Below are positions 11,994 to 58,085 of a stretch of DNA of 64,000 nt, one piece after another (the stretch's first letter is position 1; each line of letters starts with the position of its first letter). Source of the stretch: Chrysomallon squamiferum. Lineage: Eukaryota; Animalia; Mollusca. Where the stretch lies: assembly GCA_012295275.1 (NCBI GenBank), contig CM022678.1, positions 62,001-126,000 of the forward strand, given 5' to 3'. The position numbers and the translations under genes are program-made. The notes beneath the pieces are model-generated. The model made no database searches. It saw nothing but the letters and a program-made list of their open reading frames with translations, and was not told the origin of the DNA.

Positions 11994-12193
11994 NNNNNNN
12001 NNNNNNNNNNNNNNNNNNNNNNNNNNNNNNNNNNNNNNNNNNNNNNNNNNNNNNNNNNNNNNNNNNNNNNNNNNNNNNNNNNNNNNNNNNNNNNNNNNNN
12101 NNNNNNNNNNNNNNNNNNNNNNNNNNNNNNNNNNNNNNNNNNNNNNNNNNNNNNNNNNNNNNNNNNNNNNNNNNNNNNNNNNNNNNNNNNNNN
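11994..12193. other. Assembly gap (200 N)
   Basis: Run of N. Confidence 1.
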
Positions 12194-12214
12194 TTCGTTC
12201 AGTTACGTATTACT
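12194..12214 (+). other. Oxford Nanopore ligation adapter remnant (artefact)
   Basis: ttcgttcagttacgtattact versus adapter end TTCGTTCAGTTACGTATTGCT. It sits immediately after the gap and is absent from the other copy at 48280. Confidence 0.92.
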
Positions 12215-12586
12215 GAGAAAACTTAAGAATATTTATTGAAACTATTGGTGACATCTGTTCATTTTCATTGTTTGTTCCAGCATTTAATAGTGAAAAATAA
12301 TAAATATAAGTTATTGAAACTACTTTTACATTGTTTGTTTTGTAATATAGTAAATTATTTTATGATATGTTCATTTTATATTGTTTATATGGCACGGTTT
12401 TGATATTAGGGTTGACAAAACTAAAAACTATAACTTAGTTACTATTCTGATATATTAAGTATTGTGACAAAATTAAAAGTATAACATAGTAAAACTGTTC
12501 TGATAGTTATTATATTTACATAATTTAATGAGTTGCAGTTCAGAAAACAGACTATAAGGCTTTGTGATAATGATTACATTTTGCAG

Positions 12587-14419
12587 GTCATGCCAACAGA
12601 TAACATAAAAAGTTCAAGTATCTTCTAACAGCAGAAATGTCTTTCTTCAGAATATGATGAGTGTTTATATCTTTATCAATCGGTATACATAAATCTAGTG
12701 CTTACCTTTGGATAAGAAAATTCAGAAATGGACAAAATTATTATTTGTAGCGATGGGCTTTTAGGTGTTGTTTTGCTTTTTATTATCATTTTGTAAACTG
12801 ACGCTTTTCTGATTTATATTGTAAATAAATTAACAATTTAAAGGGTTCTAAGTACTTTCTGACAGACAAAATTAAAAAATAATAATAATAAAAAAAATAA
12901 ATAAAAAAATAACATAAAATAAAAAATAATTGCATACTAATTACTCCTGACTATTATAATTATTGTGTTCACCATTATTTACTGTAATCTTAGGTCATAT
13001 GTCCACAACATCTATGCATAATTAGTTAACAATACTAAGCACATTTGTTAAAAAACACATATTGCTGTATTCAGTAATACATTTTAGACAGACACAGTAT
13101 TATACTGTATGTTGCCATATCTCTACATACAATTAAAAACATTTGCTGTGTTTACAACATGCACATTCATTACATAGACACACACAAATATATTCAGAGA
13201 CACATGTGTGCTGTCATATCTCTACATATATATAAAACAGTTTTGTGTTTTCAAAATTGCTACAACATTTTATAATTATATCTAATTCTCAGTATTTTGC
13301 AGGTAAAAACATTTTTGAAATTATGCATTGAAGTTGTGAATTATAAAAGTGTGTTTACTCTGTTTTACTGCAGGACTAATGTCAAGTAATATATATCATT
13401 CTGGTTCTACTGAAATGACAGGTAACACTATACCCGTAAGTTAAAACTGAAAGTTTTCTCTTCTCTATATATTTAATAGTGTAACAGAATACACAGTAGA
13501 CATTAGTACTTTAACTATCAGACACTGTTACCTGAATAACATTGAAACAGCACATAAATAGAAAGATACAATAAATATAAACATACATACTTGTACCTAC
13601 AGTTAGCTCATACACAGAAAACAGACATACACAGACATACACATAAATACATTCAGACTGAGACACACTATGTATGTTAAACTGTATGCTGTCATGTTTC
13701 TACATATATATAAAAAAATTGTTTTGTTTTTCAAAAATTGCTACATTTTATAATTATATCTAATTCTCAGTATTTTTGCAGATAAAACATTTTTAGAAAT
13801 TATGCATTGAAATTGTGAATTATAAAAAGTATTTGCTCTCTTTCACTGCAGTACAACTGCCAGCAGATGCATCTCATTCTGTTTCTTCTCAAATAGGAAA
13901 TAACTATGTATCCGGTAAGTTAATAACTGAAAGTTTTCTGTTCTCTACATGTTTAATAGATAACAGAATACATACTAAATATTAGTACTTTTTTCTCAGA
14001 CACTGTGACCTGAACAACATAGAAAGATGCACATTAATACATAGACACAATACATATGAATATACATACCTGTACCTACATTTAGCACATACACAGAACA
14101 CATACATACACATATATATATGCAGGCGTGCAGTACACAGATATACACACAGATATATTCAGACTGAGATACAGTGTATGTATGTTAAACTGCATGATGT
14201 CATATCTCTTACATATATATAAAATCAAAATGTGTTTCAAACACTGGTGCTGCATTTAATAATTACATCTAATTCACAGAATCTTGCAGGTAAAACATTT
14301 TTAGATATTATGCATTAAATTTATGAATAATAAAATATATATTTACTTTGTTTCACAGGACAGTCCTTAATAAACATAATTAACAGTCCAGGTGCTAAAA
14401 GTAGGAGATATTAAACTGA
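12587..14419 (+). CDS. Gene A micro-exons, copy 1 (12587-~12652, 13374-13435, 13852-13914, 14359-14419), encoding RHIM-like motifs
   Basis: cag|...|gtaagt boundaries. Same exons as 48677-50529 but with 1-nt indels, probably read errors. Confidence 0.6.
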
Positions 14420-16587
14420 GTAAGTTAAAAACTGAAAAGTTTTCTTTTGTGTGTCTGTTTAATATATAACACATCCGAGTGAGTGCAATACATCATCACG
14501 AGGAGACGAGTGCAGATTGTTATATATGAAAATATTTAGAATCCTCATCTAATATCTTTTCCAATACATCATGTATATAACTTGAAACTGACTAAGTTGT
14601 AGCAGTTTCTAATAATGTTTATGCAACAGAATACCCAAGTAACCAATGGCTTCAGGAAATATTCAGGAATTTCAGATTATAGAATTAAAAAACGTTGTTC
14701 TGGTGAATGCAGCAGGTCAGAAATATGAAAATGTGTCCAGATGCTAAAGCGATGGTCAGTGACAGATTAAAAACAGGTCTGTAAAAAAATACTTAGTAGA
14801 AGTATCAGTGTTATTAACATACTGAAGTGCACATTTCATATCATGTTTCAGAGTTTCAACTTTTATTATGATCTCATTATGTGCATACACTGAGATGGCA
14901 ATGTGTGTATGTATGTTTCTTGATAGATACAAAGATATTTGTAAAGTTGATGAAGGTTTTGTCCTGTTTTGGCACTCATGATCTTAGTGGATGTAACCTA
15001 AAACAGCAGTGAAGTACACAAGTAAAACCTAATTAACAGACAAGCTGACGTCACCAAGCTCACTCAGTAACTGTTTAGAAGTCATTTTACCGCAGTGTTG
15101 ACCTTCTAGCAACATAGCTAAATATTACCAGACAAAACTACTTATTTTCATTAAATCAAACACTGAGTCAAAGTTTTGACACCATTAATGTTGCCCAGAA
15201 CAAAGTCTGTGCTGCAGAGGTTACCCTAATAAAACCAAAACCTTGTTAACTAAGAAATTGTAATTTTGAGAGCAACATTAATATTTTTGATACAAGTAAT
15301 ATCATTTTTTCCTTTGAGTGAGGGGAGTAAAAGAAATGAAAAAATATTTTAATTGTTTTACCTGTTCGGAAATAGCTGTCCGATCTATGTGTGCAGGGCT
15401 GGAAATCAAAGCATTTTGTTTCATTTTAACTATTCTCGTTTTTTTACTTTAACAATTTCAAAAATTACTTATTATTCCTCTATAATTATCAAAGCAACAT
15501 TAATTATCCATAACACTTCCGGCTTTTACCTATGAAACTAAATAAATTACACTTTATTAACAGAAAAAAAACAGAAAGAAAGAAACTTTATATAACTGTA
15601 TTAATTTATTGCAGTCATAATCCTTAGTTGATATGTATTATTACTCATTTATAAACTATAATACATAATTTTAAGTAGTGTTACGGAAAAGAAAATGATT
15701 ATGCAAACATTTTTTGAATTACGTAGAATTTACACACACACAGACACATAAAAACATAAATAAATTAACACAAACATTCACACATACAAACATATTCAGG
15801 CATAGAAAAAGTTTTGACTGAGATTTTCTTCTTAAACTGTTGATATAACTCAACATGACTATATATGCCTGTCATTATTATCACCTGTAAATACTAAATA
15901 TACTGCAAAGCATACATAACATCAACAGCAACAACAACAACAACAATAATAATAATAACAATAACAACAGCAACAATAAACAGTGGGGCATCTAAGGCAC
16001 TCACAAGCGACCATTAATTAACACCATCGTCACGTAACCAAATTAGAACCCTTTATTGGGCATAACACTCTTCCTCCAAAATAACACTAACTATACATAG
16101 GAAACTCCCTGTATCGGGTAGATAGCTACCCAATTTGGCTTGACTCTAAGGCCATATATGTATTTATATTTAATGTTAAATCATTAGAAACACAAAAACA
16201 GAAGTTTGGATTAAAGAATATATGATCTAATAATAGTTATTTACCAAGTAAGCTTACAATGTCTGCACAGCCGATTGCAAACAGTTTTACGCCACAAAAT
16301 TCACATACTTGAACATGTGAGAGATATTTCATATGTTTAAACTAGGAAACCCCAAGATGTATTTGAAGATGCAAGTATATCAAACTAATGTTCTGTTTAG
16401 CAGGACATTGACGTGACAGTCAGTTAATAATAACACCATTGTGGTATCTATGTTTACAATTACTGATGGTCAGTGTTGATCTCAGATACCCACTATTCTC
16501 ACCCACTGTTTCAGAGATAACAGTCTACAGTTACTGTGATGAGTCTGATCTCAGATTACCAGCCGTGCTCCAAATTAATGGTTATAC

Positions 16588-16677
16588 CAGTGATTCTCAA
16601 CAAGTGTGCCGCGGCAATTGATTCTCAACCAGTGTGCCGCAAACTTTTGTAGAAAAACAGTTTGAGAAAAAACACGA
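16588..16677. mobile_element. Tiny hAT-derived remnant (also 52696-52786)
   Basis: cagtgattctcaac..gtgtgccgc.. at the left and gtttgagaaaaaacac at the right resemble the termini of the hAT at 59940-61547. No clean TSD. Confidence 0.5.
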
Positions 16678-17479
16678 TTGACTGACCTGTCATTCAGAAA
16701 CATGGAAAATCATTCTGTTGTTAATCATCACAAAGTTGTAATAACTTGTCACATGTTTTCACTCATTATTTCAGTGCTTAAATTTTCTCCAAGTGTATAT
16801 TTGTGACATTTCCATTTGTATTGTTTATATCATGTTTATATTGTTTATATATTTTGGGATCAATTCCTCCTACATTAATTTGAGTGAGTATAATTACAAC
16901 TATTCAGATATTATCTGTACATTTATATTGTTTATATAACAAAATTTTGTAATAGCATTAAGTTTAAGTTATTCTGATATTACTAGTGTTAATCCTATAT
17001 TATTTAACTCGCCCAACTGTGATTGTTCTACATGTTTTAACATTATTTGCAATTTGTGATGGTTTTCAAAGAAAAACAGAAAGATTTAAATTCGAACATT
17101 TTCAGTATGATAAAATTTTAGAAGACAGTCTATAAGATTAAAACTAGTATTAATACAAGGAACTAGATGTAGGTCTCTAGAAGAGTATGCAAGATGTAGG
17201 AGGTTTTGGGATCAATTCCTCCTGATAGAATCTTGAGCTGTTTCTATTTTAGCAGTGCAGAACAACTGAGTTATGAAATAGTAACTGTCTGTGGGTAGGT
17301 ATAAATGTAATAAGAAATAGTGGACTGTGAAGTGACAACACAGGGTTTTTTCTTGTATTATCTAAATGTTCCTTAATCTTATGTCTAACCTCATATAAAT
17401 AAAAAAAAATTCTTCCTTCTGTTAAAAAAAACACAACAAAAGAAAATAAAAACTCAAATCCTTATATTACTTTTTACAG

Positions 17480-17781
17480 TTCAACCAATACAGATGACAA
17501 AAAAGAGTTCAAAAAATCTTTCTAGCATCACAGCTGATTTTTCCTCTGACAACATCACAGCTGAGTCTTCCTCTGACAACATCACAACTGAGTCTTCCAT
17601 TGACAACATCACAGCTGATTCTTCCTCTGACAACATCACAACTGAGTCTTCCATTGACAACATCACAGCTGAGTCTTCCTCTGACAACATCACAGCTGAG
17701 TCTTCCATTGACAACATCACAGCTGAGTCTTCCTCAGGCAACATCACAACTGAGTCTTCCTCGGACAACATCAATCCTAGA
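17480..17781 (+). CDS. Gene A exon containing a 27-bp minisatellite (Ser/Thr/Asp-rich DNITAESSS repeats); second copy 53592-53893
   Basis: tttttacag|ttcaacc ... cctaga|gtaatt. About 9 copies of gacaacatcacagctgagtcttcctct. Homologous to the 74-nt exon 27044-27117 of gene B. Confidence 0.6.
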
Positions 17782-17989
17782 GTAATTTTTATTTATGGTA
17801 ATACATAGAGCATTTCAATATATTATTTTCTTTATTGATTGGAAACTCTAAGCAGAATTATTATTTGTATCTGTTCCAATGCAGTTTTCAATATATTGTT
17901 TTGATGAGGCAATTCTAATCTGACAAAATTATTATTTATATCTGTAACTGTCTTATATTGTTTACTTTTCTAAAAAGATTATTTGTAAA

Positions 17990-18795
17990 CTGACATTTTT
18001 TTCTGATTTAAACTGATAATAAATTAACAACTGAAAAGGTTTCATGTACTCTCTTACAGGCAAACGTAGCAAAAATAATAAATTTAAAAAATAGACTAAT
18101 TATTGTTTCATCATAACTATTATAATTATTCTTGTGTTGACCATTATTTATTTTAATGTTGTAAAGCAATGCTCACATCAAATGTTATCTATGTATAATT
18201 AGTTAGCATTACTAAAGACAGTTGTTAAAACATATATTGCTATATTCTGTAATACTGTTCACACAGACTGTATTATACTGTATGCTGCCATATCTCTATA
18301 GATAGATAAAAATTTTCTATATTCTTAGAAATCATGCACTGAAGTTACAGAAATGTTTTTACTCTGTTTCACAGGATCAACGGTGATAAATAACATTAGC
18401 AGTCAGATTTGTCAATTCAGACATGACAATACAGCCAGTAAGTTAAAGACTGACATTTTTTTCTGATTTAAACTGATAATAAATTAACAACTGAAAAGGT
18501 TTCATGTACTCTCTTACAGGCAAACGTAGCAAAAAATAATAAATTTAAAAATAGACTAATTATTGTTTCATCATAACTATTATAATTATTCTTGTGTTGA
18601 CCATTATTTATTTTAATGTTGTAAAGCAATGCTCACATCAAATGTTATCTATGTATAATTAGTTAGCATTACTAAAGACAGTTGTTAAAACATATATTGC
18701 TATATTCTGTAATACTGTTCACACAGACTGTATTATACTGTGTGCTGCCATATCTCTATAGATAGACATGACAATACAGCCAGTAAGTTAAAGAC
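17990..18795 (+). repeat. ~460-bp tandem duplication of an intron plus micro-exon cassette; second copy internally deleted
   Basis: ctgacattttttctgatttaaactgataat starts at ~17991 and ~18450. The second copy joins gataga to catgacaatacagcca|gtaagt. Confidence 0.9.
18375..18437 (+). CDS. 63-nt phase-1 micro-exon, STVINNISSQICQFRHDNTA (RHIM-like); second copy 54485-54547
   Basis: tttcacag|ga ... gcca|gtaagt, with an open frame. Confidence 0.6.
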
Positions 18796-19664
18796 TAAAA
18801 CTGTTCTCTTCTCTACATTTTTAATAGGTAACAGTCATGAATTTAGATTGCTGTCAGTGCCATAACATTCCGTAATAGATTATCAAAAGGCTGTTATCAT
18901 AAAAATTAAATATGTATCTTTGATTAGCAACTGAACTGTAGCCCATATTAGATTTCATGAATTAGTGTCCTTGTCCATAACTATTGATGAGATATTTCCA
19001 CTTTCCAACAGCAAAATACAAACAGTTAAATATTATAAATTCCACAAAGTATTACAAATTGCGGGCCATTTATTAGATACATGTACACTCTGTATACATT
19101 TCTGTATTTATAAACCTGGTGGGGGCTTGTCATATTTTGGTTCACACTTTCTTAATGGATGACTAAAAAAAACTAATCACCAGGCAAGTTCATGTCACCA
19201 AACTCATTTGGTCATTTCTGATTTTCAGAAATCATTTTACTACAGTGCAGACTTTCTAGCAACTACTTAGCTAAATTATTAACTACAAAACTATTTTTCA
19301 TTAAATAGAAGAAAGTGTTATACATTTATTTTGGTATCAAACAATAAAAGCAAGTAGTAATCTGCCACTCACAGCAGTTAAATAGTCTCTCTCTCTCTCT
19401 GTGTGTGTGAAACCTAATCACTTAAACATGGTCATATAACTGGCATTTCCTTGACCAATAACATGTCACATATAGAAATGCATACATGTATACTAATCAA
19501 ACATAATTTAAACATGTAGTTTGTGGACAGTATAACACATACTAGTTACAAAATAATAGTTGAAGGATCAATTTTTTTTTAACATGGATATTACAGTTAC
19601 TTTTCTATAAAATCAACACAATTACTACACACATGCATATTCAGAACTGTCTAATGAGTAATAT

Positions 19665-20815
19665 CTCCACATTTCAGTTCTTGATAAAGAAGTAGGGAAG
19701 ATAAAAGGGATGAAACTAAAATGCTAGAAATCCTGGTTAATTCTGGAAATCCTGTGGATATAATAAATGACAAAAACAATAAAGGTGAAACAGCTTTGAT
19801 TGTAGCTCTGAAAAACCATTGTAGACAGAAAGCTGGTTTTTTACTGGAATGTGGAGCTGATCCTTGTGCATCAGACGATGATAGAAATTCTGTTTTGCTT
19901 CTAGCTGCTAAACAAGGATATTTTGAAATTGTGAAACAATTGATTAAGAAAGGAGTTGATGTGAATACTAAAAACAGTACAGGTGAAACTCCTCTGTTTA
20001 CAGCTGTTAAGTATGAACAGAACAAAGTAGCGTTGTATTTACTGGAAAATGGAGCTGATCCTAATTTAACAGACAATGATGAAAATTCTGTTTTACACCT
20101 AGCAGCTAAATGTGGAAATAGAGAAATTGTGACAGCACTGATTGGAAAAGGTGTTAATGTAAATATTAGAAACATTACAGGTGAAACTCCTGTTTTAACA
20201 GCTGTTAAGCATCAGCAGAAGGGTATAGTTTCATATTTACAGGAAAATGGTGCTGATCTTACTATAAAAGACAATGATAACAATTCTGTTTATCACCTAG
20301 CAGCTAAATAAGAAAATGTAGAAATTGTGACAAAATTGATTGAAAAGATGTTGATATAAATATTTGTAATGGAACCTCATTAATGCCTTTTTGCCAGGCT
20401 TGTTTTTAATCGAAATTTTGTCTTCTATGTAGTGAATTATATAATATTCGTAAAACACTTATTTTTATAAGTGGTAATTATGGTATACATTTTAATATTA
20501 CAGTCTGTTATCCTTTAGACAGGAGGAGCCAAATTTTAGGTATTAATACCAATTAAGCTAATCTCCGTACAGGGGAAACTCCTCTTTCTACAGCTGTTAA
20601 GTATAAACAGAAACGTGTAGTTTTGTATTTACTGGAACGTGGAGCTGTTCTTAATTAACAACATCAGCTCCATGTTCCAGTAAATACAAAACTACACATT
20701 TCTGTTTTACACCTAGCAGCTAAACATGGAAATATAGAAATTGTGAGAGTATTGATTGAAAAAGGTTCTGCTGTAAATATTTTCAGTCAAGGTAAATCGC
20801 CCTTTCATGTAACAT
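19665..20815 (+). pseudogene. Ankyrin-repeat region of gene A (ORF 19721-20311, then a stop, a frameshift and a ~195-bp insertion)
   Basis: GETALIVA, NSVLLLAA, GETPLFTAV, NSVLHLAA, GETPVLTAV, NSVYHLAA repeats with LLENGADPN/GVDVN. The TAA at 20309 is present in both copies. Repeats resume at ~20567. Confidence 0.85.
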
Positions 20816-21099
20816 GAAATTAAATGTATATCTGATGCACAAGCATTGAGCAGTCTGAAAAAAAGAAAAACAAAACAGAAGTTTTGTATTAATATTGAGA
20901 AATTTATGAATATAAATAAATGAAACTATTCTAATATTGTCTATGTATTTTCATTGTTTATATAACTTAGTTTACTAAAATTATTCTTAAGATATGTGCA
21001 TATATATTTTTTATATAACACATTGTGGTACTAGGATTGACAAAACTAAAATATAACTTAGTAAAGTATTTTGATAATTATTATATAATTTTACAATAG

Positions 21100-22090
21100 A
21101 TGATAAAATAAAAATGTTACAAAAAAGATAGTGAAACCTGACTGTTTTGATGTTCTTGCTCATGAGTTTACTGACTTGCTGGCATCAAATAATGCCAGAG
21201 AAATTATTTCACATCCATCACTGAAAGATGAAGGGTTTGTAAAGTATCTCATAGGGGAAAAACATTTTGGTGGTAGACTGTCTGAAATACTGCATCAGAA
21301 ACTTTTTGAAAATGCATTTCATAAAAACAGTCCTCATTCAATACTTGCTCAAAAGAAATATTTTTATATATCAGTAGAAATATTTCATGTCTTCTTGACA
21401 ATGAGTCAAAAACTATATCTAGTTACATGTGGTATTTGGAAGTTGAAGACACTTTTAATTTTCATTCACTGTTCCAAGTGAGTGCATTGTGAATAGACAA
21501 AGAACATTAAGATTGTTCACATCAAATCTATGTAAAATGAAACTAACGTGTTTGAAAAAAGAACTTTTAGATATTTCTTGTTTGTTTGGTGATGAAGATA
21601 TTGTGAGAATGTTGCTAAAATCAGGTGTTACACCAACATTTGATACACTGAATGCAGCTGCTTGTTCAAAAACAGACAGTGCTACCATACTCAAAGAACT
21701 GTTACAGTATAAAAAGAAGATGAAATTGAATATTTGTTCTCACTTGTTACATATTTCAATTTGTTCAGGTAACATGAACATTGCCTGTCTGTTGGCTGAG
21801 ATGATAAACAATGAGAAACAGTGAAATAAAGGAAAAAGTTGTAAAACTTTTATTGGTTAGGTTCCAAAGTACTTCAAGTGTTATAAAAGAAATAGTAAAA
21901 CTGAAACCTGATTGTGTAAATGATGAGAACAGAGATAAAGTACTTTTAGCAGCAGCAATGTGGGGATCTACTGATACAGTGAATGTTCCCACTGAACAGA
22001 GATGTAATGATACAGATGGAAACAACTGAAAGAAAAGTGAAATACTGAAAGTGGTAAGTGATATTTAACACTGTAGATGTTGTTCAGAAA
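21100..22090 (+). pseudogene. Degenerate helical plus ankyrin-like coding relic
   Basis: Overlapping ORFs 21131-21481, 21489-21824 and 21811-22029 with LLDISCLFGDEDIVRMLLKSG, LLHISICSGNMNIACLL and VLLAAAMWGSTDTV. A paralogous piece lies at 43040-43230. Confidence 0.6.
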
Positions 22091-26287: not shown

Positions 26288-27043
26288 TATATTTGTGACA
26301 TTTTTATTTGTTACACCGGACAGGTTTAGTTCATTTCAGTGATTTCTGACAACAGTTCTGTTGAATTTTACCATGTATATTTGTAATGTTTATTAAAAAA
26401 ATCAGTGTGTGTTTCAGGTTGACCAAGGCATAAGACACAAACAACCCAGTCAGCTCGTCCACAACCCCTAAAAAAAGAAGCAAAAATAAACAAAAACCAA
26501 AATGAAGTAAAGGTAATTAATTACAACTAAGTTTTTATGTAATAACATTGTGAAAACTGTATTTTGTTAAGTATTTTTAAATAGCATATTTTACATCTCT
26601 ATTTACAAAAATTAGTACATTTAATGGTTTATATTTGATTATTTAAAAAAAATGTAGTAGGAATATATTTATAGAACAAAAGTTGAGAATACTGTCTATA
26701 AGGCTAAGACTAATATTAATACAAGGTACCAGATGTTGGTCTCTAGTATGTGCAAGGTATAATATGTCTTTGGATCAATTCCTACTGATAGAATTTGTAG
26801 CTGCTTTCATTTCAGTTCGTGCTCAACAACTGATGTATGAACTTGTATGTGCTGTCTGTGGGTAGGTGTAAATGAAGTATCACTTGTTGTTAATGAGAAA
26901 GAGTAGACTGTTAAGTGATAGCACTGGGTTTCTTCTTGTATTATCTGAATGTTCCTTAATCTTATGTGTAACTTCATGTAAATAAAATGAGTTGAATAAA
27001 ACATTTCTTTTTATATTAGAAATCATTATTTTATTTTTAACAG

Positions 27044-27117
27044 CTCAACCAACAGTGATTATGAAAAAATGTGTTCAGCAATTTTATCTGACATCACAGA
27101 TGTGGCATCCTCAAAGA
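27044..27117 (+). CDS. Gene B small exon (STNSDYEKMCSAILSDITDVASSK)
   Basis: tttttaacag|c ... aaga|gtatga. Same donor context as 48677-48747. Confidence 0.55.
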
Positions 27118-27479
27118 GTATGACAAAATTATATTTTTAATAATGAAGTATTTCAAATCATGTTTATTTTATATATTTTTTTTTTTTTTGTTAGGCTTTG
27201 TAAAGTGTTGCTTTTTTGTCTTATATTCATAAATAAATTGACAATTCTAATATTTTCATCTGGTTTTTATTTGAAAATACACACTTGTTATTATTTGATT
27301 GGATAATTAGTTAATAATATTAAACACGTTTTTTAAAACATATAATTTTATTGTTATATTGAGAAATACTGTTAAGACAGACTGTATTAATACTGTCATA
27401 CCTCTACATGTAGCTAAAAATCACATGGTTTTAGAAATTATTTTAATAAATATAATTTTAAATAATTTCTTTTACTCAG

Positions 27480-27581
27480 TTAGAAGAACACAACCACTAG
27501 TAAAACATAATGTAAATATCAGCACAGTTCACAATTACCAGGATGTGTCTAATAACAGGAATGTTGTGTTTGGAAATCAAG
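27480..27581 (+). CDS. Gene B exon with RHIM-like motif (RRTQPLVKHNVNISTVHNYQDVSNNRNVVFGNQ)
   Basis: tttactcag| phase-1 acceptor and open frame. It is followed by the same ttaaaaactgaaagtt intron head as the gene A micro-exons. The donor is degraded or one base short. Confidence 0.55.
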
Positions 27582-28102
27582 TTATTAAAAACTGAAAGTT
27601 AAAAACTGAACGTTTTCTTTTCTCTACCTGTTTAATAAATAACAAAATACACACCACACTAGTCATTAGTACTTTTCTGTCATTCACTGTGACATGACCA
27701 GCACAGAAACATGCACACACAGGCACAATACATACAAACATTCATTCACACATAAATTATAAGTATTGTTATTCTCATTTAGATTTTATGTTTAATATTT
27801 TATTAATATAATTCAACCTAATTTAAACAACCCAATACAGATGTCATTATTAGTAGTAGCAAGAACATAGTAATAATAATAACACTGTGAACAATAACAG
27901 TACATAATTAACAACATGTAAAAACAAATAAAAGTAGTGGTTTTAATAAATAATTAATAAGTAAAAAGATCCAACAGTAATAATATTACATGTTTATTGT
28001 TTCATGAATAAAGTGTAGAGTAATTGTAAAGATCACTTTAATCATTCTCTTTTACACAACATCAATAATATAAATTTACTTGTTTATTTTTTGTTACTTC
28101 AG

Positions 28103-28132
28103 CAACTGATGAACAAGCATCCAATATCAAAG
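28103..28132 (+). CDS. Gene B 30-nt phase-1 micro-exon (TDEQASNIK); decayed duplicate at 28912-28944
   Basis: ttacttcag|ca ... aaag|gtatat. Confidence 0.55.
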
Positions 28133-29196
28133 GTATATTTTTATTTCATTTTTTATTATTATTAGTTGTACAATTTTCCATGATAACAAAACAGTCATCT
28201 CATTACTTTCACACATCTAAAATTGTGACATCTTATCTTTTGTTAAATTCTGATGAACAAAAAGCATGACAACAAACTGCCGTTTTTACTTCAGAAACTT
28301 CACATTAGATGATCAGTTAAAAAATGATATTATTTATATTTAAACAGTAAAATATCTTCTATACAATTAATACTTCCTTTTATTGTGTAACATGACTGTT
28401 GTAATAGGAAATCAGTTATTAAAAGTAGTAACATAGACAAAATACATACACTTAACAGATATATGGAACATGTACATAAACACACACATATATGCAGACA
28501 CGCATTACACAGACATGTATAATATTCACACAGTGCATGTATGTTAAACTGATCAGCATTTTCTTCTTAACTTGTTAGTATAACTCAAATGAAGTAAACG
28601 AGACTATATGCCTATCACTATTACTAAAATACAGTGCAGGGTACACATGACAGCAGCAATAATCACAACAACAACAGCAATAATAATACCAACAATAGCA
28701 ATAGATAAATAACATTAGTTATAAGAAACAACAGCAGTAGTTTTGATAATAGTAGGAGTAAGTATATAAAACCAGTAAGAAAGATCTAATAATAATGTTA
28801 TATGCTTCATGTTCAGTGAATAAAGTGCAGGGTATTTGTACAGATCACTTTAATCATTTCTTTTACACAACATCAGTAATGTAAACTTGTTTTATTTTTA
28901 TGATATTTCAGCAAAGACTGATAAATGAGCTTTCAGTATTAGATGGGTTTTTTATCTCCTGAAAGATGTTCATTTATAACAAGATAATCATCTGATTAGG
29001 TCTGCACCATATAAAATTGTGATGTCTTATTTATGTTAAATTCTGATGAACTAAAACTATGACAACCTTTTTTATCATTATTTTAGAACCTTCAATCTAA
29101 TAACCAATTAAAATTTATATACTTTTATTTAAATAGTAAAATATGTTTAAAATAGTTAAAGACAGATCTTTTTTGTTTGTTTATGTTGTGATGCAG

Positions 29197-30350
29197 AGTA
29201 TACCAGGTCAGTGTTAAACTCAGTTGACTGGAGTGTCTATGTTGAAACAAGAGCAGAGAAAAGAGGTGTTGAACTTTTGAAGAAACATGGTGTTGTGATT
29301 GTAGTAGGATGTCCAGGTTCAGGAAAAGACAACTCTAGCTTTGAGGATGATGAGAGAGATAGAAAAAGAAGAAAAAAGAGAATCTTACTCACTGACTCAT
29401 CACTATGAATTCAATGACATCTCTCTATTTAGAAATAAGAAATTTGTTGTTCTCATTGATGACATATTTGGTAAGACTAATCTTGTTTCATATTTTAGAG
29501 ACTCATGGAAACCGAAATTTATAAAGGTGTGGAGTCTTGTTCAGGATGGTTCTTTGAAATGTATTATTACTTTAAGAAAACAAATATTTTCAGAAACTAA
29601 AACTAGTTTGAAGAAATTTGGTCTGTTTAATGAGAATCATGTTTTTGATCTCTGTTGTCTGAATTATTATGAAAAGGAACAAATTCTAAACAAATATCTT
29701 AAAAAACACAATGTTACCGTGAATGAAAATGGTAAAAAAGACTGTCATTTACAATTCATTTACAGAGTTAGGATTTCCTCAGATGTGTGTGTATTATGTT
29801 AATTCAAGTGATGCACAAAAAAAAGAGGAGTTGAGTTTTTAAGAAACCTGTAGAGTATCTCAGACAAGAGCTGGAAAATTTGAAAACTGACAAAACTTTA
29901 CAGATCAATTATCTGGTTCTACTGCTGATTTTGTTCAAAGAAGGCAGTCTCAGCATTGATTCACTGGACCCATTTAAAAATGACTCTGACAGTGACATAA
30001 TGAAATTAATAAGGTTGCTAGAGCAAGTCTGCCCGAGTCTGAAAAACACTGGTCTTAGAGATATAAAGAAAACAGCTGATGTAATGTGTGGTACCTATTT
30101 GAAGTGTTGTGAGAATAAATACACATTTATTCACCAGTCAGTAATTGACTGTTTGTTTCTGATGTTTTCAGTAGAGTTTTCAAAGAAAGCAGCAGAGTTT
30201 CTAGAAGTGAGTCCTGTCTCCATGTTGTTAGAATATGTTGTTCAGTGTCGTCTTGGTAAAGGAGCTGATCCTAATCTGAATGCAGATGTTAACCAGAAAC
30301 TGATTCAACAGTTTGAAGAGGAAATTAAATTAAAACTGTGGTCTGATGAC
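29197..30350 (+). pseudogene. STAND-class P-loop NTPase (nSTAND3-like) plus helical/winged-helix region of gene B; frameshifted as assembled
   Basis: Phase-1 acceptor gatgcag|ag. Motifs: YVET, VVIVVGCPGSGK[TTLA] (Walker A, restored by removing one A at ~29325), FVVLIDDIFG (Walker B), CIITLR (sensor 1), LGFPQMC (GxP, shifted frame), GTYL..YTFIHQSVID. Confidence 0.85.
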
Positions 30351-30374
30351 AAAACTAGTTTAAATTTGTCCACT

Positions 30375-31590
30375 TTAGACTCACCTCTCCACATTTCAGT
30401 TCTGCGTGGTGACTTAGATATGTTAAAATCACTAATAAAGAGAAATGCTGATGTTAACATGAGTAAACAGTGAGGAAAACTCCACTTCATGAAACTGTAA
30501 AAAGCAGTGAAACACAGAAAGGAAGTAGCTTTGTTGTTACTGCAAAATGGTGCTGATACTAATATAACAGATAAAAAAAATAATTCAGCACTGCACATAG
30601 CATCTCAAATTGACATAAAAGTGGTAAAAGAAGTAGTAAAAAAAGGTGTTCAAATAAATGTAATTAACACTGAAGGTCAAACTCCTCTTTTTTTGTCCTT
30701 ATACAGTAACAAACCAGAAATAACTTCATACTTACTGAAACATGGAGCTGATCCTAATTTAACAGACATTCATAACAATTCTGTTTTACACTTAGCAGCT
30801 GAACATGGAAATCTAAAAATTGTGAGAGCACTGATTGAAAAAGGAGTTGATGTAAATATTAAAAACGGTCAAGGTGAAACTCCTCTTTTTACAGCTGTTA
30901 AGTATGAACATTGCAAAGTAGTTTTGTATTTACTGGAACATGGAGCTGATCCTCATTCAAAAGACAATAATAACAATTCTATTTTACATTTAGCTAAAGC
31001 ATGGAAATAGAAAATATTGTGACAGCTCTGATTGAAAAACATGTTGATGTAAACATTATAAACAGAAGTGGTGACACTCCTCTTTTTTGCAGCTATCAAG
31101 TATGGGCAGAACAAAGTAGTTTTGTACTTACTGGAAAATGGAGCTGATCTAATTTAAAAGACAGTGATGAAAATTCTGTTTTACACATAGCAGCTATACA
31201 AGAAAAATCTAGAACTTTTGACAGCACTGATTGAAAAAGAATTTGATATAAATGTTAGAAACAGTAAAGGTGAAACTCCTCTCTTTACAGCTCTGAATTA
31301 CTACAAATATGATTTTTACAAGCACCCACCAGCTGTGTAAATGTCGTAATAATGAAACTCTCAGAAGTAATTTTGTATTTACTGGATCATGGAGCTGATC
31401 CTAATATAACAGACAATGATAACAATTGTGTTTCCCAACAGACAGCTTATTGTGCAAATCTAACAATTATGAGAAAACTAACTGAATGAGGTGTTGATGT
31501 AAATGTTATTAATTCAATTGAAAAACTCCTATTGATATAGCTAACAGTTGCAGATTTCATCCGTAACAAGGAAATTGTCTTTACTGAATG
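30375..31590 (+). pseudogene. C-terminal ankyrin repeats of gene B (~11-12 repeats; ORF 30507-31010 plus frameshifted flanks)
   Basis: SPLHISV, NSALHIAS, GQTPLF, NSVLHLAAEHGNLKIVRALIEKGVDVN, GETPLFTAV, GDTPLF. Stops and indels lie between segments. AATAAA at ~31716. Confidence 0.85.
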
Positions 31591-42760: not shown

Positions 42761-43424
42761 AGGGGGTAGATTTGCTTCGAGTATATCCAATGTATTTACT
42801 CAGGTGTTCACAAATACATTACTGATACAGTTCACAGAGCTGTTAAGCTATTCATGTTAGAAAATATCTCTTACAAGTAGTTTTATCAATATTTCTATCA
42901 TTACCAACTCTTCCATTTATAGTATATTGTTATTTTGCAAAATATACAGATATATAGATAGACAGATAAATAGATAGATAGATAGACAGATCGATAGATA
43001 GATTATATTTATATCAATCTTGTATTCATGACTTTGACCAGAACAGAGATAAAGTACTTTTAGCAGCAGCAATATGCTGATCTACTGATACAGTGAATTT
43101 TCTCATTGAGCACAGATGTAATGATAAAGATGAGAACAGCTGTAAGAAAAGTCAAGTACTCAAAGTAGCAGTGATGTTTAACAGTGCTGATGTTGTTCAG
43201 TGTCTTCTTGATAAAAGAGTGATCCCGGACTCTGACATGCGAAACTCATTTTTCATTTGAGTTTTCATTTTGAAAATAGTTATGACCAAATCAAATTACA
43301 ATATTTCTATTTCTTTAATTTATTCAATTATAAAACAATAAACACACGAACGAAAAGGGTTATCGTCTGGTATATTTAATGTAAGTATGACAGAAACAGG
43401 CCTGACATCAGACCAGTTTTGTCT

Positions 43425-46024: not shown

Positions 46025-46699
46025 CTACGTCATGTCATTCTCCCCGTCGCCTTCATACGCAACGCCTACCATCTGCAGACACAAAACCTGGATTCGTCTG
46101 TGAATAAACGTCTGATCCCATTGTCTGCGTCGCCTGTGTTGATGTATTCTGGCCCCTTTGAGATGTTTCCGAAGGTGACGCGCTGTCAGGGGAACATCTA
46201 CAACACGGTGACGTGCTTGTAATCCAGCAGCATGGAGACTGCTAGGGACAGTTTGAGCATGAATTCTAGTGTGTGTGGTTTGCTGAAAACTACGGGATAA
46301 ATGTCGAGCACTTTCGAACCTCTGACGTCTAAATCTTCCCTTTGAGTAGTTAATCTGGTCTACCAGAACGTGGTCGATCACGGTGTACGCGCTGGCGGAG
46401 ACGTGACATGGTACTTCTACATGAAAGTACTGAGCGACGTCGTGTACACGTTGGCCGGCGTTAACCCGTCCCATTGCTTCATAACGTTGATTTTCCGTTA
46501 AGCCAGAACGGCGACCCATCAAAATAAGATAACTTCTTTCTTTTGTTTTTGGCGCGCGATATGACAAATGGTGACTTTTTCATTATCCAAAGCCATAGGG
46601 AATATGCATCTAACATATTACAAAGTTTTATCACTTATTTCAATTTATTTGGAAGCAACAGTCATTTACAAAAACTTGCTAAACTTTTCTGGTTAGGTA
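46025..46699 (-). mobile_element. 5' part of a Tc1-family DNA transposon (truncated, frameshifted transposase)
   Basis: Paired-like HTH (LTENQRYEAMGRVNAGQRVHDVAQYFHV), RRQRFESA..L, TV..LHAAGL.AR, PLTARH. The shifted frame gives FTDESRF and DGR (first catalytic Asp). A TIR-like end ta..ctaaccagaaaagtttagcaag lies near 46699. Confidence 0.85.
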
Positions 46700-47799: not shown

Positions 47800-48676
47800 T
47801 CCATTCCTTTTATACAGCTGTTCTGACTATATACAAGACCCAGTGGTAACCCAAATGTGCTCCAGCATTTTCAAATCTGGACTCATGACTGGCCAAGGCA
47901 GAATTGTTAAAACTTTGTTTTATAGTTGGGCTGTTACTTGATGAGATTACCAATGACAGTGATTGTAGTGAAGTTGATACCCAGTACATTTGCTGGACAT
48001 CATTTTTGTATCCATTCCTTTTATCTGCCATATTTTTGCCTCTGATGTCCTCCTTCATGTAATATATACTGTGAATGACACAATACAATGGAGTTAAATA
48101 TGCATATATGATGTAGAATATTCTGCAGTTTGGAAAACTCATGGGTGGACATTGGTAAGTTTTCACTTATGGTGTTTGTATAACTTAATTTAGTACTGAT
48201 ATTGAGAAAACTGAGCATATAACTTACTAAAAGTATTCTGGTGTTATCTATATATTTCCATTGCTTATGTTACAATTTAGTTTTAGTACTGAGAAAACTA
48301 AGAATATGTTTTATTGAAACTATTATGATAGTATCTGTTCATTTTCATTGTTTATTTAACTTAATTTAATATTAGTATTGAAAAATATGTAAATATAAGT
48401 TATTGAAACTACTTTTACATTGTTTGTTTTACTTAATATAGTAAAATTATTTTATGATATGTTCATTTATATTGTTTATATAGCACAGTTTGATATTAGG
48501 GTTGACAAAACTAAAACTATAACTTAGTTACTATTCTGATATATTAAGTACACTTGACAAAATTAAGAGTATAACATAGTAAAACTGTTCTGATAATTAT
48601 TATATTTACATAATTTAATAGTGCAGTTCAGAAAACAGACTATAAAGGCTTTGTGATAATGATTACATTTTTACAG

Positions 48677-50529
48677 GTCATACCAACAAGATAACATAAA
48701 AAGTTCAGAAGTATCTTCTAACAGCAGAAATGTCTCTTCTTCAGAGAGTATGACAAAATTGTTTATATCTTTATCAATCAGTATACATAAATCTAGTGCT
48801 TACCTTTGGATAAGAAATTCGAAATGGACAAAATTATTATTTATGTGTAACGATGTAGCTTTTAAATTGTTGTTTACTTTTTATTATCATTTGTAAACTG
48901 ACACTTTTCTGATTTATATTGTAAATAAATTAACAATTTAAAGGGTTCTAAGTACTTTCTGACAGACGAAATTAAAAAAAATAATAATAATAAAAAAATA
49001 AATAAAAAAATAACATAAAATAAAAATAATTGCATACTAATTACTCCTGACTATTATAATTATTGTGTTCACCATTATTTACTGTAATGCTTAGGTCATA
49101 TGTCACAACATCTATGCATAATTAGTTAACAATACTAAGCACATTTGTTAAGAAACACATATTGCTGTATTCAGTAATACATTTTAGACAGACTGTATTA
49201 TACTGTATGTTGCCATATCTCTACATACAGATTAAAAACATTTGCTGTGTGTTACAAACATGCAGACATTCATTACATAGACACACACAAATATATTCAG
49301 AGACACATGTGTGCTGTCATATCTCTACATATATATAAAACAGTTTTTTGTGTTTCAAAAATTGCTACAACATTTTATAATTATATCTAATTCTCAGTAT
49401 TTTGCAGGTAAAAACATTTTTTGAAATTATGCATTGAAGTTGTGAATTATAAAAGTGTGTTTACTCTGTTTTACTGCAGGACTAATGTCAAGTAATATAT
49501 ATCATTCTGGTTCTACTGAAATGACAGGTAACACTATACCCGGTAAGTTAAAAACTGAAAGTTTTCTCTTCTCTATATATTTAATAGTGTAACAGAATAC
49601 ACAGTAGACATTAGTACTTTGCTATCAGACACTGTTACCTGAATAACATTGAAACACGCACATAAATAGAAAGATACAATAAATATAAACATACATACTT
49701 GTACCTACAGTTAGCTCATACACAGAAAACAGACATACACAGACATACACATAAATACATTCAGACTGAGACACACTATATGTATGTTAAACTGTATGCT
49801 GTCATGTTTCTACATATATATAAAAACATTGTTTTGTTTTTCAAAAATTGCTACATTTTATAATTATATCTAATTCTCAGTATTTTGCAGATAAAAACAT
49901 TTTTAGAAATTATGCATTGAAATTGTGAATTATAAAAAAGTATTTGCTCTCTTTCACTGCAGTACAACTGCCAGCAGATGCATCTCATTCTGTTTCTTCT
50001 CAAATAGGAAATAACTATGTATCCGGTAAGTTAATAACTGAAAGTTTTCTGTTCTCTACATGTTTAATAGATAACAGAATACATACTAAATATTAGTACT
50101 TTTTTCTCAGACACTGTGACCTGAACAACATAGAAAGATGCACATTAATACATAGACACAATACATATGAATATACATACCTGTACCTACATTTAGCACA
50201 TACACAGAACACATACATACACATATATATATGCAGACGTGCAGTACACAGATATACACACAGATATATTCAGACTGAGATACAGTGTATGTATGTTAAA
50301 CTGCATGATGTCATATCTCTTACATATATATAAAATCAAAATGTGTTTCAAACACTGGTGCTGCATTTAATAATTACATCTAATTCACAGAATCTTGCAG
50401 GTAAAACATTTTTAGATATTATGCATTAAATTTATGAATAATAAAATATATATTTACTTTGTTTCACAGGACAGTCCTTAATAAACATAATTAACAGTCC
50501 AGGTGCTAAAGTAGGAGATATTAAACTGA
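48677..50529 (+). CDS. Gene A micro-exon chain (48677-48747, 49480-49542, 49963-50025, 50470-50529)
   Basis: Canonical AG/GT boundaries; lengths 71, 63, 63 and 60 nt. Spliced frame is open: SYQQDNIKSSEVSSNSRNVSSSE-RLMSSNIYHSGSTEMTGNTIP-VQLPADASHSVSSQIGNNYVS-GQSLINIINSPGAKVGDIKL. Confidence 0.7.
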
Positions 50530-53500
50530 GTAAGTTAAAAACTGAAAGTTTTCTTTTGTGTGTCTGTTTAATATATAACACATCACGAGTGCAATACACA
50601 TCACGAGGAGACGAGTGCAGATTGTTATATATGAAAATATTTAGAATCCTCATCTAATATCTTTTCCAATACATCATGTATATAACTTGAAACTGACTAA
50701 GTTGTAGCAGTTTCTAATAATGTTTATGCAACAGAATACCCAAGTAACCAATAGCTTGCGGAAATATTCAGGAATTTCAGATTATAGAATTAAAAAACGT
50801 TGTTACGGTGAATGCAGCAGGTCAGAAATATGAAAATGTGTCCAGATGCTAAAACGATGGTCAGTGACAGATTAAAAACAGGTCTGTAAAAGAAATACTT
50901 AGTAGAAGTATCAGTGTTATTAACATACTGAAGTGCACATTTCATATCATGTTTCAGAGTTTCAACTTTTTATTATGATCTCATTATGTGCATACACTGA
51001 GATGGCAATGTGTGTATGTATGTTTCTTGATAGATACAAAGATATTTGTAAAGTTGATGAAGGTTTTGTCCTGTTTTGGCACTCATGATCTTAGTGGATG
51101 TAACCTAAAACAGCAGTGAAGTACACAAGTAAAACCTAATTAACAGACAAGCTGACGTCACCAAGCTCACTCAGTAACTGTTTAGAAGTCATTTTACCGC
51201 AGTGTTGACCTTCTAGCAACATAGCTAAATATTACCAGACAAAACTACTTATTTTTCATTAAATCAAACACTGAGTCAAAGTTTTGACACCATTAATGTT
51301 GCCCAGAACAAAGTCTGTGCTGCAGAGGTTACCCTAATAAAACCAAAACCTTGTTAACTAAGAAATTGTAATTTTGAGAGCAACATTAATATTTTTGATA
51401 CAAGTAATATCATTTTTTCCTTTGAGTGAGGGGAGTAAAAGAAATGAAAAAATATTTTAATTGTTTTACCTGTTCGGAAATAGCTGTCCGATCTATGTGT
51501 GCAGGGCTGGAAATCAAAGCATTTTGTTTCATTTTAACTATTCTCGTTTTTTTACTTTAACAATTTCAAAAATTACTTATTATTCCTCTATAATTATCAA
51601 AGCAACATTAATTATCCATAACACTTCCGGCTTTTACCTATGAAACTAAATAAATTACACTTTATTAACAGAAAAAAAACAGAAAGAAAGAAACTTTATA
51701 TAACTGTATTAATTTATTGCAGTCATAATCCTTAGTTGATATGTATTATTACTCATTTATAAACTATAATACATAATTTTAAGTAGTGTTACGGAAAAGA
51801 AAATGATTATGCAAACATTTTTTGAATTACGTAGAATTTACACACACACAGACACATAAAAACATAAATAAATTAACACAAACATTCACACATACAAACA
51901 TATTCAGGCATAGAAAAAGTTTTGACTGAGATTTTCTTCTTAAACTGTTGATATAACTCAACATGACTATATATGCCTGTCATTATTATCACCTGTAAAT
52001 ACTAAATATACTGCAAAGCATACATAACATCAACAGCAACAACAACAACAACAATAATAATAATAACAATAACAACAGCAACAATAAACAGTGGGGCATC
52101 TAAGGCACTCACAAGCGACCCGTAATTAACACCATCGTCACGTAACCAAATTAGAACCCTTTATTGGGCATAACACTCTTCCTCCAAAATAACACTAACT
52201 ATACATAGGAAACTCCCTGTATCGGGTAGATAGCTACCCAATTTGGCTTGACTCTAAGGCCATATATGTATTTATATTTAATGTTAAATCATTAGAAACA
52301 CAAAAACAGAAGTTTGGATTAAAGAATATATGATCTAATAATAGTTATTTACCAAGTAAGCTTACAATGTCTGCACAGCCGATTGCAAACAGTTTTACGC
52401 CACAAAATTCACATACTTGAACATGTGAGAGATATTTCATATGTTTAAACTAGGAAACCCCAAGATGTATTTGAAGATGCAAGTATATCAAACTAATGTT
52501 CTGTTTAGCAGGACATTGACGTGACAGTCAGTTAATAATAACACCATTGTGGTATCTATGTTTACAATTACTGATGGTCAGTGTTGATCTCAGATACCCA
52601 CTATTCTCACCCACTGTTTCAGAGATAACAGTCTACAGTTACTGTGATGAGTCTGATCTCAGATTACCAGCCGTGCTCCAAATTAATGGTTATACCAGTG
52701 ATTCTCAACAAGTGTGCATGGCAATTGATTCTCAACCAGTGTGCCGCAAACTTTTGTAGAAAAAACAGTTTGAGAAAAAAAACACGATTGACTGACCTGT
52801 CATTCAGAAACATGGAAAATCATTCTGTTGTTAATCATCACAAAGTTGTAATAACTTGTCACATGTTTTCACTCATTATTTCAGTGCTTAAATTTTTCCA
52901 AGTGTATATTTGTGACATTTCCATTTGTATTGTTTATATCATGTTTATATTGTTTATATATTTTGGGATCAATTCCTCCTACATTAATTTGAGTGAGTAT
53001 AATTACAACTATTCAGATATTATCTGTACATTTATATTGTTTATATAACAAAATTTTGTAATAGCATTAAGTTTAAGTTATTCTGATATTACTAGTGTTA
53101 ATCCTATATTATTTAACTTCAAGCCCAACTGTGATTGTTCTACATGTTTTAACATTATTTGCAATTTGTGATGGTTTTCAAAGAAAAACAGAAAGATTTA
53201 AATTCGAACATTTTCAGTATGATAAAATTTTAGAAGACAGTCTATAAGATTAAAACTAGTATTAATACAAGGAACTAGATGTAGGTCTCTAGAAGAGTAT
53301 GCAAGATGTAGGAGGTTTTGGGATCAATTCCTCCTGATAGAATCTTGAGCTGTTTCTATTTTAGCAGTGCAGAACAACTGAGTTATGAAATAGTAACTGT
53401 CTGTGGGTAGGTATAAATGTAATAAGAAATAGTGGACTGTGAAGTGACAACACAGGGTTTTTTCTTGTATTATCTAAATGTTCCTTAATCTTATGTCTAA

Positions 53501-55764: not shown

Positions 55765-56890
55765 TCCACATTTCAGTTCTTGATAAAGAAGTAGTGGAAG
55801 ATAAAAGGGATGAAACTAAAATGCTAGAAATCCTGGTTAATTCTGGAAATCCTGTGATATAATAAATGACAAAAACAATAAAGGTGAAACAGCTTTGATT
55901 GTAGCTCTGAAAACCATTGTAGACAGAAAGCTGGTTTTTACTGGAATGTGGAGCTGATCCTTGTGCATCAGACGATGATAGAAATTCTGTTTTGCTTCTA
56001 GCTGCTAAACAAGGATATTTTGAAATTGTGAAACAATTGATTAAGAAAGGAGTTGATGTGAATACTAAAAACAGTACAGGTGAAACTCCCTCTGTTTACA
56101 GCTGTTAAGTATGAACAGAACAAAGTAGCGTTGTATTTACTGGAAAATGGGAGCTGATCCTAATTTAACAGACAATGATGAAAATTCTGTTTTACACTAG
56201 CAGCTAAATGTGGAAATAGAAAATTGTGACAGCACTGATTGGAAAAGGTGTTAATGTAAATATTAGAAACATTACAGGTGAAACTCCTGTTTTAACAGCT
56301 GTTAAACATCAGCAGAAGGGTATAGTTTCATATTTACAGGAAAATGGTGCTGATCTTACTATAAAAGACAATGATAATTCTGTTTATCACCCAGCAGCTA
56401 AATAAGAAAATGTAGAAATTGTGACAAAATTGATTGAAAAGATGTTGATATAAATATTTGTAATGGAACCTCATTAATGCCTTTTGCCAGGCTTGTTTTA
56501 ACGAAATTTTGTCTTCTATGTAGTGAATTATATATATTCAGAAACACTTATTTTTATAAGTGGTAATTATGGTATACATTTAATATTACAGTCTGTTATC
56601 CTTTTAGACAGGAGGAGCCAAATTTTAGGTATTAATACCAATTAAAGCTAATCTCATTAGGGAAACTCTTTTCTACAGCTGTTAAGTATAAACAGAAAAC
56701 GTGTAGTTTTGTATTTACTGGAACGGAGCTGTTCTTGATTAACAACATCAGCTCCATGTTCCAGTAAATACAAAGACACATTTCTTTACACCCAACAGCT
56801 AAACATGGAAATATAGAAATTGTGAGAGTATTGATTGAAAAGGTTCTGCTGTAAATATTTTCAAATCAAGGTAAATGCCTTTCATGTAAC
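55765..56890 (+). pseudogene. Second, error-rich copy of the gene A ankyrin region
   Basis: Same sequence as 19665-20815 with extra homopolymer indels. Confidence 0.8.
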
Positions 56891-57885: not shown

Positions 57886-58085
57886 NNNNNNNNNNNNNNN
57901 NNNNNNNNNNNNNNNNNNNNNNNNNNNNNNNNNNNNNNNNNNNNNNNNNNNNNNNNNNNNNNNNNNNNNNNNNNNNNNNNNNNNNNNNNNNNNNNNNNNN
58001 NNNNNNNNNNNNNNNNNNNNNNNNNNNNNNNNNNNNNNNNNNNNNNNNNNNNNNNNNNNNNNNNNNNNNNNNNNNNNNNNNNNNN
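57886..58085. other. Assembly gap (200 N)
   Basis: Run of N. Confidence 1.

Follow-up and report, generated by a model that had tools for sequence, protein, structure and literature searches.

The locus at positions 27,044 to 31,590 of a 64,000-nucleotide stretch of Chrysomallon squamiferum DNA (contig CM022678.1, positions 62,001 to 126,000, forward strand; the whole stretch is termed the window) raises the question of whether this snail possesses an NLR-like receptor in which a RHIM-like amyloid motif precedes an nSTAND3-type NTPase and ankyrin repeats, as the original prediction, made from the letters alone, proposed. The reading we favor, with about as much confidence as doubt, is that this nSTAND3-ankyrin copy is transcribed, has lost an internal segment, skips its RHIM-like exon, and is likely decaying, and that the intact members of its multi-copy gastropod family, in which the exon is spliced in, are likely to be NLR-like immune receptors with amyloid templating. 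The window is AT-rich animal DNA in which an Rfam scan found no match, and all features of the locus lie on its + strand.

Three GT..AG joints, 26512>27044, 27117>28103, and 28132>29197, were identified at the locus in contigs from RNA runs X7 and X8 (15 of the 20 RNA joints are listed; run X9, share 0.04, was excluded). The last of these had been predicted and was present in both RNA runs and missing from both DNA runs. The first connects an upstream exon (26418..26512, its 5′ end deduced from the acceptor), which is probably untranslated given the stop that lies ahead of the next exon's reading frame, to the exon at 27044..27117, where an out-of-frame ATG (27061) sits 8 nt upstream of the first in-frame ATG (27069). 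A 30-nt linker mini-exon (28103..28132, phase 1-1), joined on both sides in X7 and X8, leads to the large terminal exon (29197..31590). A duplicate of the mini-exon at 28912..28944 is dead, with an in-frame stop and no GT donor.

Between the exon with the start codon and the mini-exon lies the RHIM-like motif exon (27480..27593), a symmetric exon of 114 nt (phase 1-1) that contains the motif DVSNNRNVVFGNQ, with the RHIM-like core VSNNRNVVFGN at 27545..27577 and the tetrad-like word VVFG at 27563-27574. In this copy the exon is skipped, because its donor (27594..27595) is inactivated, reading GA instead of GT; among nine sites in the window downstream of motif-type exons, GT is found at eight and GA at 27594 alone. 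Each run has a single contig with the skipping joint, 27117>28103, at depths of 22.3 and 21.7 and with 28 and 30 letters on the shorter side. We assign it to this locus because its depth in X8 is the same as that of the contig in which the upstream joint 26512>27044 occurs together with three corrections, which are present at single-copy depth in DNA run X3. A 339-nt X7 contig runs across the GA without any difference from the window, its shorter side measuring 33 letters; at that position GT is read in a diverged X8 contig. The joints proposed for the inclusion of the exon did not hold: 27117>27480 was absent among the 15 listed joints, and the donor at 27581 was rejected, as the join ~27581>28103 yields a frameshift and a stop and the exon ends at 27593. 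No alternative GT was found that would give an in-frame, stop-free exon with the motif. Transcripts that skip 27480-27581, named beforehand as a result that would refute the proposed receptor, are what the RNA of this locus contains.

The paralogs behave differently. Six paralogous RNA contigs (four from X7, two from X8) join a diverged motif exon via a 33-nt mini-exon towards the NTPase exon, and the joins are in frame since each is 3 nt longer than the window version (hand count). In these six contigs, and not in this copy, the spliced RNA encodes the motif ahead of the NTPase, as in NWD2, so that the proposed motif-NTPase-ankyrin architecture holds for the family and fails for the locus on which it was based. 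RNA depth over the motif exon was 61-114 (X7) and 66-92 (X8) vs. mostly <11 in the flanking introns, and many of the paralogous contigs have Cys for the second Asn of the motif (27554-27556). The read depth of DNA run X3 over the NTPase, approximately 40-75 times the single-copy level, is not a copy number; it suggests tens of copies.

The terminal exon has the domains expected of a STAND protein. Pfam places an nSTAND3 NTPase domain (PF20720) at 29238..29720, with Walker A at 29307-29330, which a frameshift of one base interrupts at ~29324, and Walker B at 29446-29472, and the predicted IITLR (29563-29577), GFP (29771-29779), and winged-helix (30090-30149) motifs were all confirmed. The stretch with the GFP motif, helical domain, and winged helix (29771..30241) is 47-53% identical to the nearest Gigantopelta protein and was assessed through the model of a relative; by motifs, the STAND layout (NTPase, GxP helical domain, winged helix) is present. 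Eleven recognizable ankyrin repeat starts and a partial twelfth follow at 30381..31520, in agreement with the predicted ~11-12, and an in-frame TGA (31487-31489) falls in the last repeat. The assignment to nSTAND3 rather than NACHT was also upheld: the NTPase piece of the window scored 56.1 bits vs. a cut-off of 27.2 for PF20720, NB-ARC reached just E 0.012, and there was no Pfam match to NACHT in this piece. In the strict sense of an animal NLR (NACHT plus leucine-rich repeats) the protein is not one, having nSTAND3 and ankyrin domains.

We place the window NTPase among the STANDs because of this Pfam score and the STAND-like fold predicted for a relative, P0018. In the core model of P0018 (pLDDT 90.8), from which, rather than from the window protein itself, all structural matches come, nine of the ten best matches were STAND proteins. 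The top match was Avs5 (Z 13.7, root-mean-square deviation 11.7, 242 residues aligned), a second Avs5 entry had Z 12.4 (deviation 2.9, 149 aligned), and others were NRC2 (Z 13.0), the MalT regulator complex (12.8), NLRP9, NLRP3, and SAMD9; Avs5, NRC2, and MalT can be considered tied. With Foldseek, AAA+ proteins led by E-value and STANDs ranked top by TM-score for the core, and the fold search with the full-length model returned ankyrin proteins alone. An Atlas search with the NTPase piece gave nSTAND3 clusters at 0.86-0.87, which is a lead only, and no Avs model of PADLOC matched.

Two word-index protein searches with pieces of the window gave no matches. An exhaustive search with the winged-helix piece identified 47 proteins, the best 53% identical, and among the best 30 of these nSTAND3 was present in 28 and ankyrin in 29. 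Among 30 proteins looked up by species, nine come from Gigantopelta aegis, 15 from Haliotis, and one from Solemya. In a FastTree tree of 40 cores (midpoint root; near-duplicates P0020, P0048, P0049, P0050, and P0052 dropped) the window protein is inside a Gigantopelta clade with support of 0.999, on a long branch (0.67 vs. 0.25-0.43 for its nearest relatives). At the N-terminal slot of the family, P0033 has a caspase and P0045 a SAM domain, which fits what an effector slot would hold. With the order caspase-nSTAND3-ankyrin, P0033 (Haliotis rufescens XP_048241358.1) is in its own right a STAND receptor fused to a caspase. Two isoform models of one gene, P0051 and P0020 (Haliotis rubra XP_046560795.1 and XP_046560796.1), differ by exactly a 32-residue Asn/Val-rich cassette before the NTPase, and this cassette ends in VQI-G.

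How closely the motif resembles a RHIM depends on the definition applied. Its letters follow the 11-residue pattern on which the original prediction was based; a six-frame scan of the window finds this pattern once and a looser 6-residue pattern three times. A cryptic RHIM (cRHIM) is defined by a VxxG word in the available part of PMC13506858, and VVFG conforms to this weak criterion, which is often satisfied by chance. The canonical tetrad, (V/I)-Q-(V/I/L/C)-G as given in the accessible text of 10.64898/2026.02.19.706818, is approached in relatives: P0007 (Gigantopelta XP_041355392.1) has VQFG and P0051 has VQIG, and VQFG is described, in the portion of PMC12119088 at hand, as a natural RHIM tetrad variant that supported signaling in human RIPK3. 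In three Gigantopelta proteins the motif words stand 43-48 residues before the NTPase, VKDCRSVQFG in P0007, VTGNQNVHVG in P0005, and LKNCRETNVG in P0008; the models of P0001 and P0003 begin at the NTPase and are thus outside this comparison. In the model of P0008 the stretch with the motif lacks structure (pLDDT <50). On its sequence the window motif is formally not a RHIM; it is RHIM-like in pattern, position, and predicted disorder, is conserved within the vent-snail clade, and is a putative amyloid.

Several results weigh against the reading favored here. None of 14 motif segments matched Pfam RHIM, Protein Data Bank (PDB) searches with the motif, a short and therefore weak query, had no RHIM fibril among their matches, and VVFG lacks the Gln of the canonical tetrad. 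P0002 and P0006, of the same clade as P0005, P0007, and P0008, have a different Gly-rich stretch, and the Haliotis members have Asn/Ile/Val-rich stretches of other types at this place, with no clear abalone match to the motif. An unbiased comparison of the window motif (17 residues) with the N-termini of 26 relatives (those of at least 40 residues; P0048, P0049, P0052, and P0062 dropped) gave a non-significant Fisher p of 0.49, with 3 of 26 at p<0.05. An 11-residue two-allele profile (with an Asn/Cys column) gave p 1e-4 for seven Gigantopelta N-termini (two at p<0.05) and p 0.07 for the 19 others, and just 2 of 279 control windows scored ≥25 and none ≥30, although this profile was picked after the relatives had been inspected. 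By the spacing of RIPK3 (aliphatic positions 450/452/458/460 and Gly 461, known from mutagenesis and taken from the available text of 10.64898/2026.02.19.706818), with P0055 also dropped, P0007 agreed at four of four positions plus the Gly, alone among 25 N-termini, and the window and P0005 at three of four plus the Gly. Two of six clade members had the spacing where 0.14 would be expected (p 0.01 in one of nine tests), and none of the 19 others had it. In addition, the RNA evidence consists of contigs from two runs of one study, no effector with a matching motif was seen in the window, and most of the frameshifts look like assembly errors, so that this copy may still make protein.

Some candidates were left out of these counts. 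A high-scoring match in P0040 (Haliotis rubra XP_046555462.1) was set aside as it is located 192 residues upstream, inside a TIR-like region; residues ~145-270 of P0040 resemble, by eye, a TIR-type domain, with no Pfam match at E 0.1. A relaxed pattern matching five N-termini had been fitted after seeing them, and the second motif of P0007, being almost identical to the first, is a duplicate without independent weight. Four copies of the motif exon in a complex predictor scored 0.02, which we count neither for nor against, and an Atlas search with the motif exon had no usable match.

The alternative that survives best, which we consider unlikely though deserving of weight, is that the motif exon is an Asn/Val-rich disordered linker with a chance likeness to a RHIM, that the receptors signal by oligomerization alone or via paralogs with enzymatic effectors, and that this copy is a decaying duplicate. 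In its favor are the missing RHIM profile match, the non-significant unbiased test, the differing N-termini of abalones, and the caspase-bearing member P0033. Chance accounts less readily for the Cys/Asn-x-x-Val-x-Phe/Val-Gly word at the same position in a second species, for the canonical-type tetrad in P0007, for the similar words borne by several of the window's tandem exons (INIINSPGAKVGD at 50470-50528 is one), and for the stretch 27557-27590, which has no high-depth substitution among the listed rows while its flanks vary.

What has become of this particular copy is indicated by its lesions, of which the original prediction mentioned neither the deletion nor the stop. We infer an in-frame internal deletion with 7-nt microhomology at 30235..30241, because some paralogous RNA contigs end at 30241 and others start at 30235. 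The interval from the end of the winged helix to the first ankyrin-like motif is 294-366 residues in five Gigantopelta relatives vs. ~46 in the window, and there is a tblastn gap, consistent with the removal of ~250-320 residues found in relatives, i.e., of the helical region between the winged helix and the sensor repeats. The deletion is probably real; no listed contig bridges it. At the stop at 31487-31489 the covering X7 contig has no substitution (it has seven differences elsewhere, and its five gaps are unplaced). Conversely, most of the frame breaks in the terminal exon, at least 11 and mostly in homopolymer runs, are probably assembly errors, as Illumina contigs show numerous gaps relative to the window (7 in 568 nt, 12 in 365 nt) and paralogous contigs are without the extra base at 29324. 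Isolated pieces of the helical region lost from the main locus occur at 21107-22050 and ~43040-43250 of the window. Neighboring copies at 12.2-21.8 kb and 48.3-57.8 kb are without the NTPase, and the locus belongs to a cluster in birth-and-death turnover.

It is also conceivable, but in our view improbable, that this copy is a functional motif-less variant that senses or co-assembles with intact paralogs without nucleation, as a decoy or damper, with exon skipping as a family-wide switch. The copy is spliced and transcribed, its Walker motifs are intact, both the skipping and the internal deletion preserve the frame, and the H. rubra models X1 and X2 differ by their 32-residue cassette at the same place. 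Those isoforms are gene models only, however, and the copy has three further lesions (the loss of ~250-320 residues, the stop in the last repeat, and the out-of-frame upstream ATG), sits on a long branch, and is flanked by broken paralogs, and we therefore regard decay as the likelier fate. The broader proposal, that snails and abalones have an expanded Avs5-type STAND-ankyrin receptor family that signals through RHIM-like amyloid motifs on symmetric cassette exons, and that skipping or loss of these exons turns the output off and makes motif-less isoforms and paralogs (this locus; H. rubra isoform X2) dampers of an animal amyloid signalosome, is to our minds distinctly improbable. An intact motif-nSTAND3-ankyrin receptor at this very locus, with a GA donor that is either an assembly error or in low-level use, is highly improbable, for although the assembly is error-prone (up to 12 gaps in 365 nt against Illumina contigs), the joint listing covers 15 of 20, and the motif exon is still open with its acceptor intact, the 339-nt X7 contig, from another sample, is identical to the window across the GA, both RNA runs contain the skipping joint, and there is no other GT from which an in-frame motif exon free of stops would result.

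Under the reading of a decaying copy among intact amyloid-templating receptors, the intact members would act in four steps. By analogy with STAND biology, the ankyrin array would bind a ligand and open a closed STAND module; the NTPase would then oligomerize, possibly as a filament like that of its closest solved relative, Avs5, both PDB entries of which are titled helical assemblies. The short disordered N-termini would thereby be brought into register, and the motif could nucleate a cross-beta stack, which in turn may recruit a RHIM- or cRHIM-bearing adaptor, e.g., a molluscan RIPK1-like or IMD-like protein, leading to NF-kB signaling or cell death. The copy in the window would be unable to stack its motif, because its RNA skips the motif exon. 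A candidate is known from molluscs: NF-kB activation by zebra mussel RIPK1 depends on its RHIM, and a CARD-RHIM protein is among those encoded by a bivalve iridovirus, according to the available parts of PMC12119088 and PMC12452177, respectively; the accessible text of PMC9334734 reports RIPKs to be missing from Aplysia.

Other elements of the window deserve mention. Three tandem small exons of the motif-exon type, all with GT donors, are present at 13375-14419 and 49480-50529, two of them with RHIM-like words (SSQIGNNY and INIINSPGAKVGD, the latter open in the 50470-50528 copy); they constitute a multi-motif N-terminus, with no NTPase exon downstream in the window. Another motif-type exon (VINNISSQICQFRHDN) is at 18375-18437 and 54485-54547, 3′ of a Ser/Asp/Asn/Ile/Thr tandem-repeat exon (17480-17780) and 5′ of an ankyrin-only stretch (19688-20830), and this region may be a motif-ankyrin gene without an NTPase or a broken copy. 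The segments 12208-21784 and 48284-57849 are a 9.6-kb duplication of 97% identity, either a tandem duplication or a haplotype artefact, and each duplicate adjoins an assembly gap (11994-12193 and 57886-58085). There are also remnants of a Tc1-type transposase (Pfam HTH_Tnp_Tc3_2, E 4e-7) at 46025-46579 on the - strand and of a zinc-finger-bearing transposase at 60755-61255 (+), the latter presumably of hAT type by resemblance, without Pfam support.

The original prediction knew of no characterized animal example. A receptor with an NWD2-like layout has been predicted in amphioxus (BF82280; Kajava et al., 2014, available part of PMC4262963), so that an animal protein of the RHIM-STAND-repeat kind has already been put forward in print, as a prediction only. 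We did not find the nSTAND3-ankyrin version in literature on nSTAND3, molluscan or STAND RHIMs, molluscan STAND-ankyrin expansions, and vent-snail genomes, a search mostly of work outside subscription journals that also took in the accessible parts of PMC8195603, PMC7889193, PMC12261475, and 10.1101/2025.09.29.679196; animal nSTAND3 architectures might appear in Figure 9c of the last or in the supplementary material of these papers. Surveys based on NACHT plus leucine-rich repeats overlook the gastropod family; only one NLR was counted in Aplysia, as stated in the available portion of PMC9334734. Amyloid signaling from a STAND receptor has been shown in fungi and bacteria and in animals predicted once, and if our reading is true, the gastropod family makes it directly testable in an animal, places a receptor upstream of RHIM-dependent molluscan RIPK1-like proteins, and connects a family of animal receptors with the class of NTPases to which bacterial Avs5 belongs. 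For such work the window copy is a poor subject, and intact paralogs or Gigantopelta P0007 would be better.

Of the known systems, BF82280 of Branchiostoma floridae is predicted to resemble the gastropod family in having a RHIM-type motif at the N-terminus, then a STAND NTPase, and repeats at the C-terminus; as described in the available text, its NTPase is NACHT whereas that of the large, expressed gastropod family is nSTAND3, and the window motif departs from the canonical form and sits on an exon that can be skipped. The fungal NWD2/HET-S and PP-motif NLRs and the bacterial BASS-NLR pairs likewise have a short N-terminal amyloid-type motif, a STAND NTPase, and a repeat sensor. They differ in using NACHT or NB-ARC and in that an effector gene with a matching motif adjoins the receptor, of which none is present in the window; amyloid signaling has been shown for them, while for the gastropod family it is a prediction. 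The RHIM and cRHIM proteins (RIPK1, RIPK3, ZBP1, TRIF, and the arthropod PGRP-LC and Imd) have a similarly spaced hydrophobic-x-hydrophobic-Gly word in a disordered stretch, and multi-RHIM proteins recall the tandem motif exons of the neighboring paralog; in contrast, the window word has neither Gln nor a Pfam match and is attached to a STAND NTPase, not to a kinase, Z-alpha, TIR, or PGRP domain. Bacterial Avs5 (PDB 9jap, 9nc9), a Sir2-nSTAND3-repeat protein in the available part of 10.1101/2025.07.08.663546, has the same Pfam NTPase family, is the best structural match of the P0018 core, and has the same effector-NTPase-repeat layout, with an enzymatic Sir2 effector, a TPR/Sel1/PPR sensor, a bacterial host, and 13-16% identity setting it apart from the gastropod proteins.

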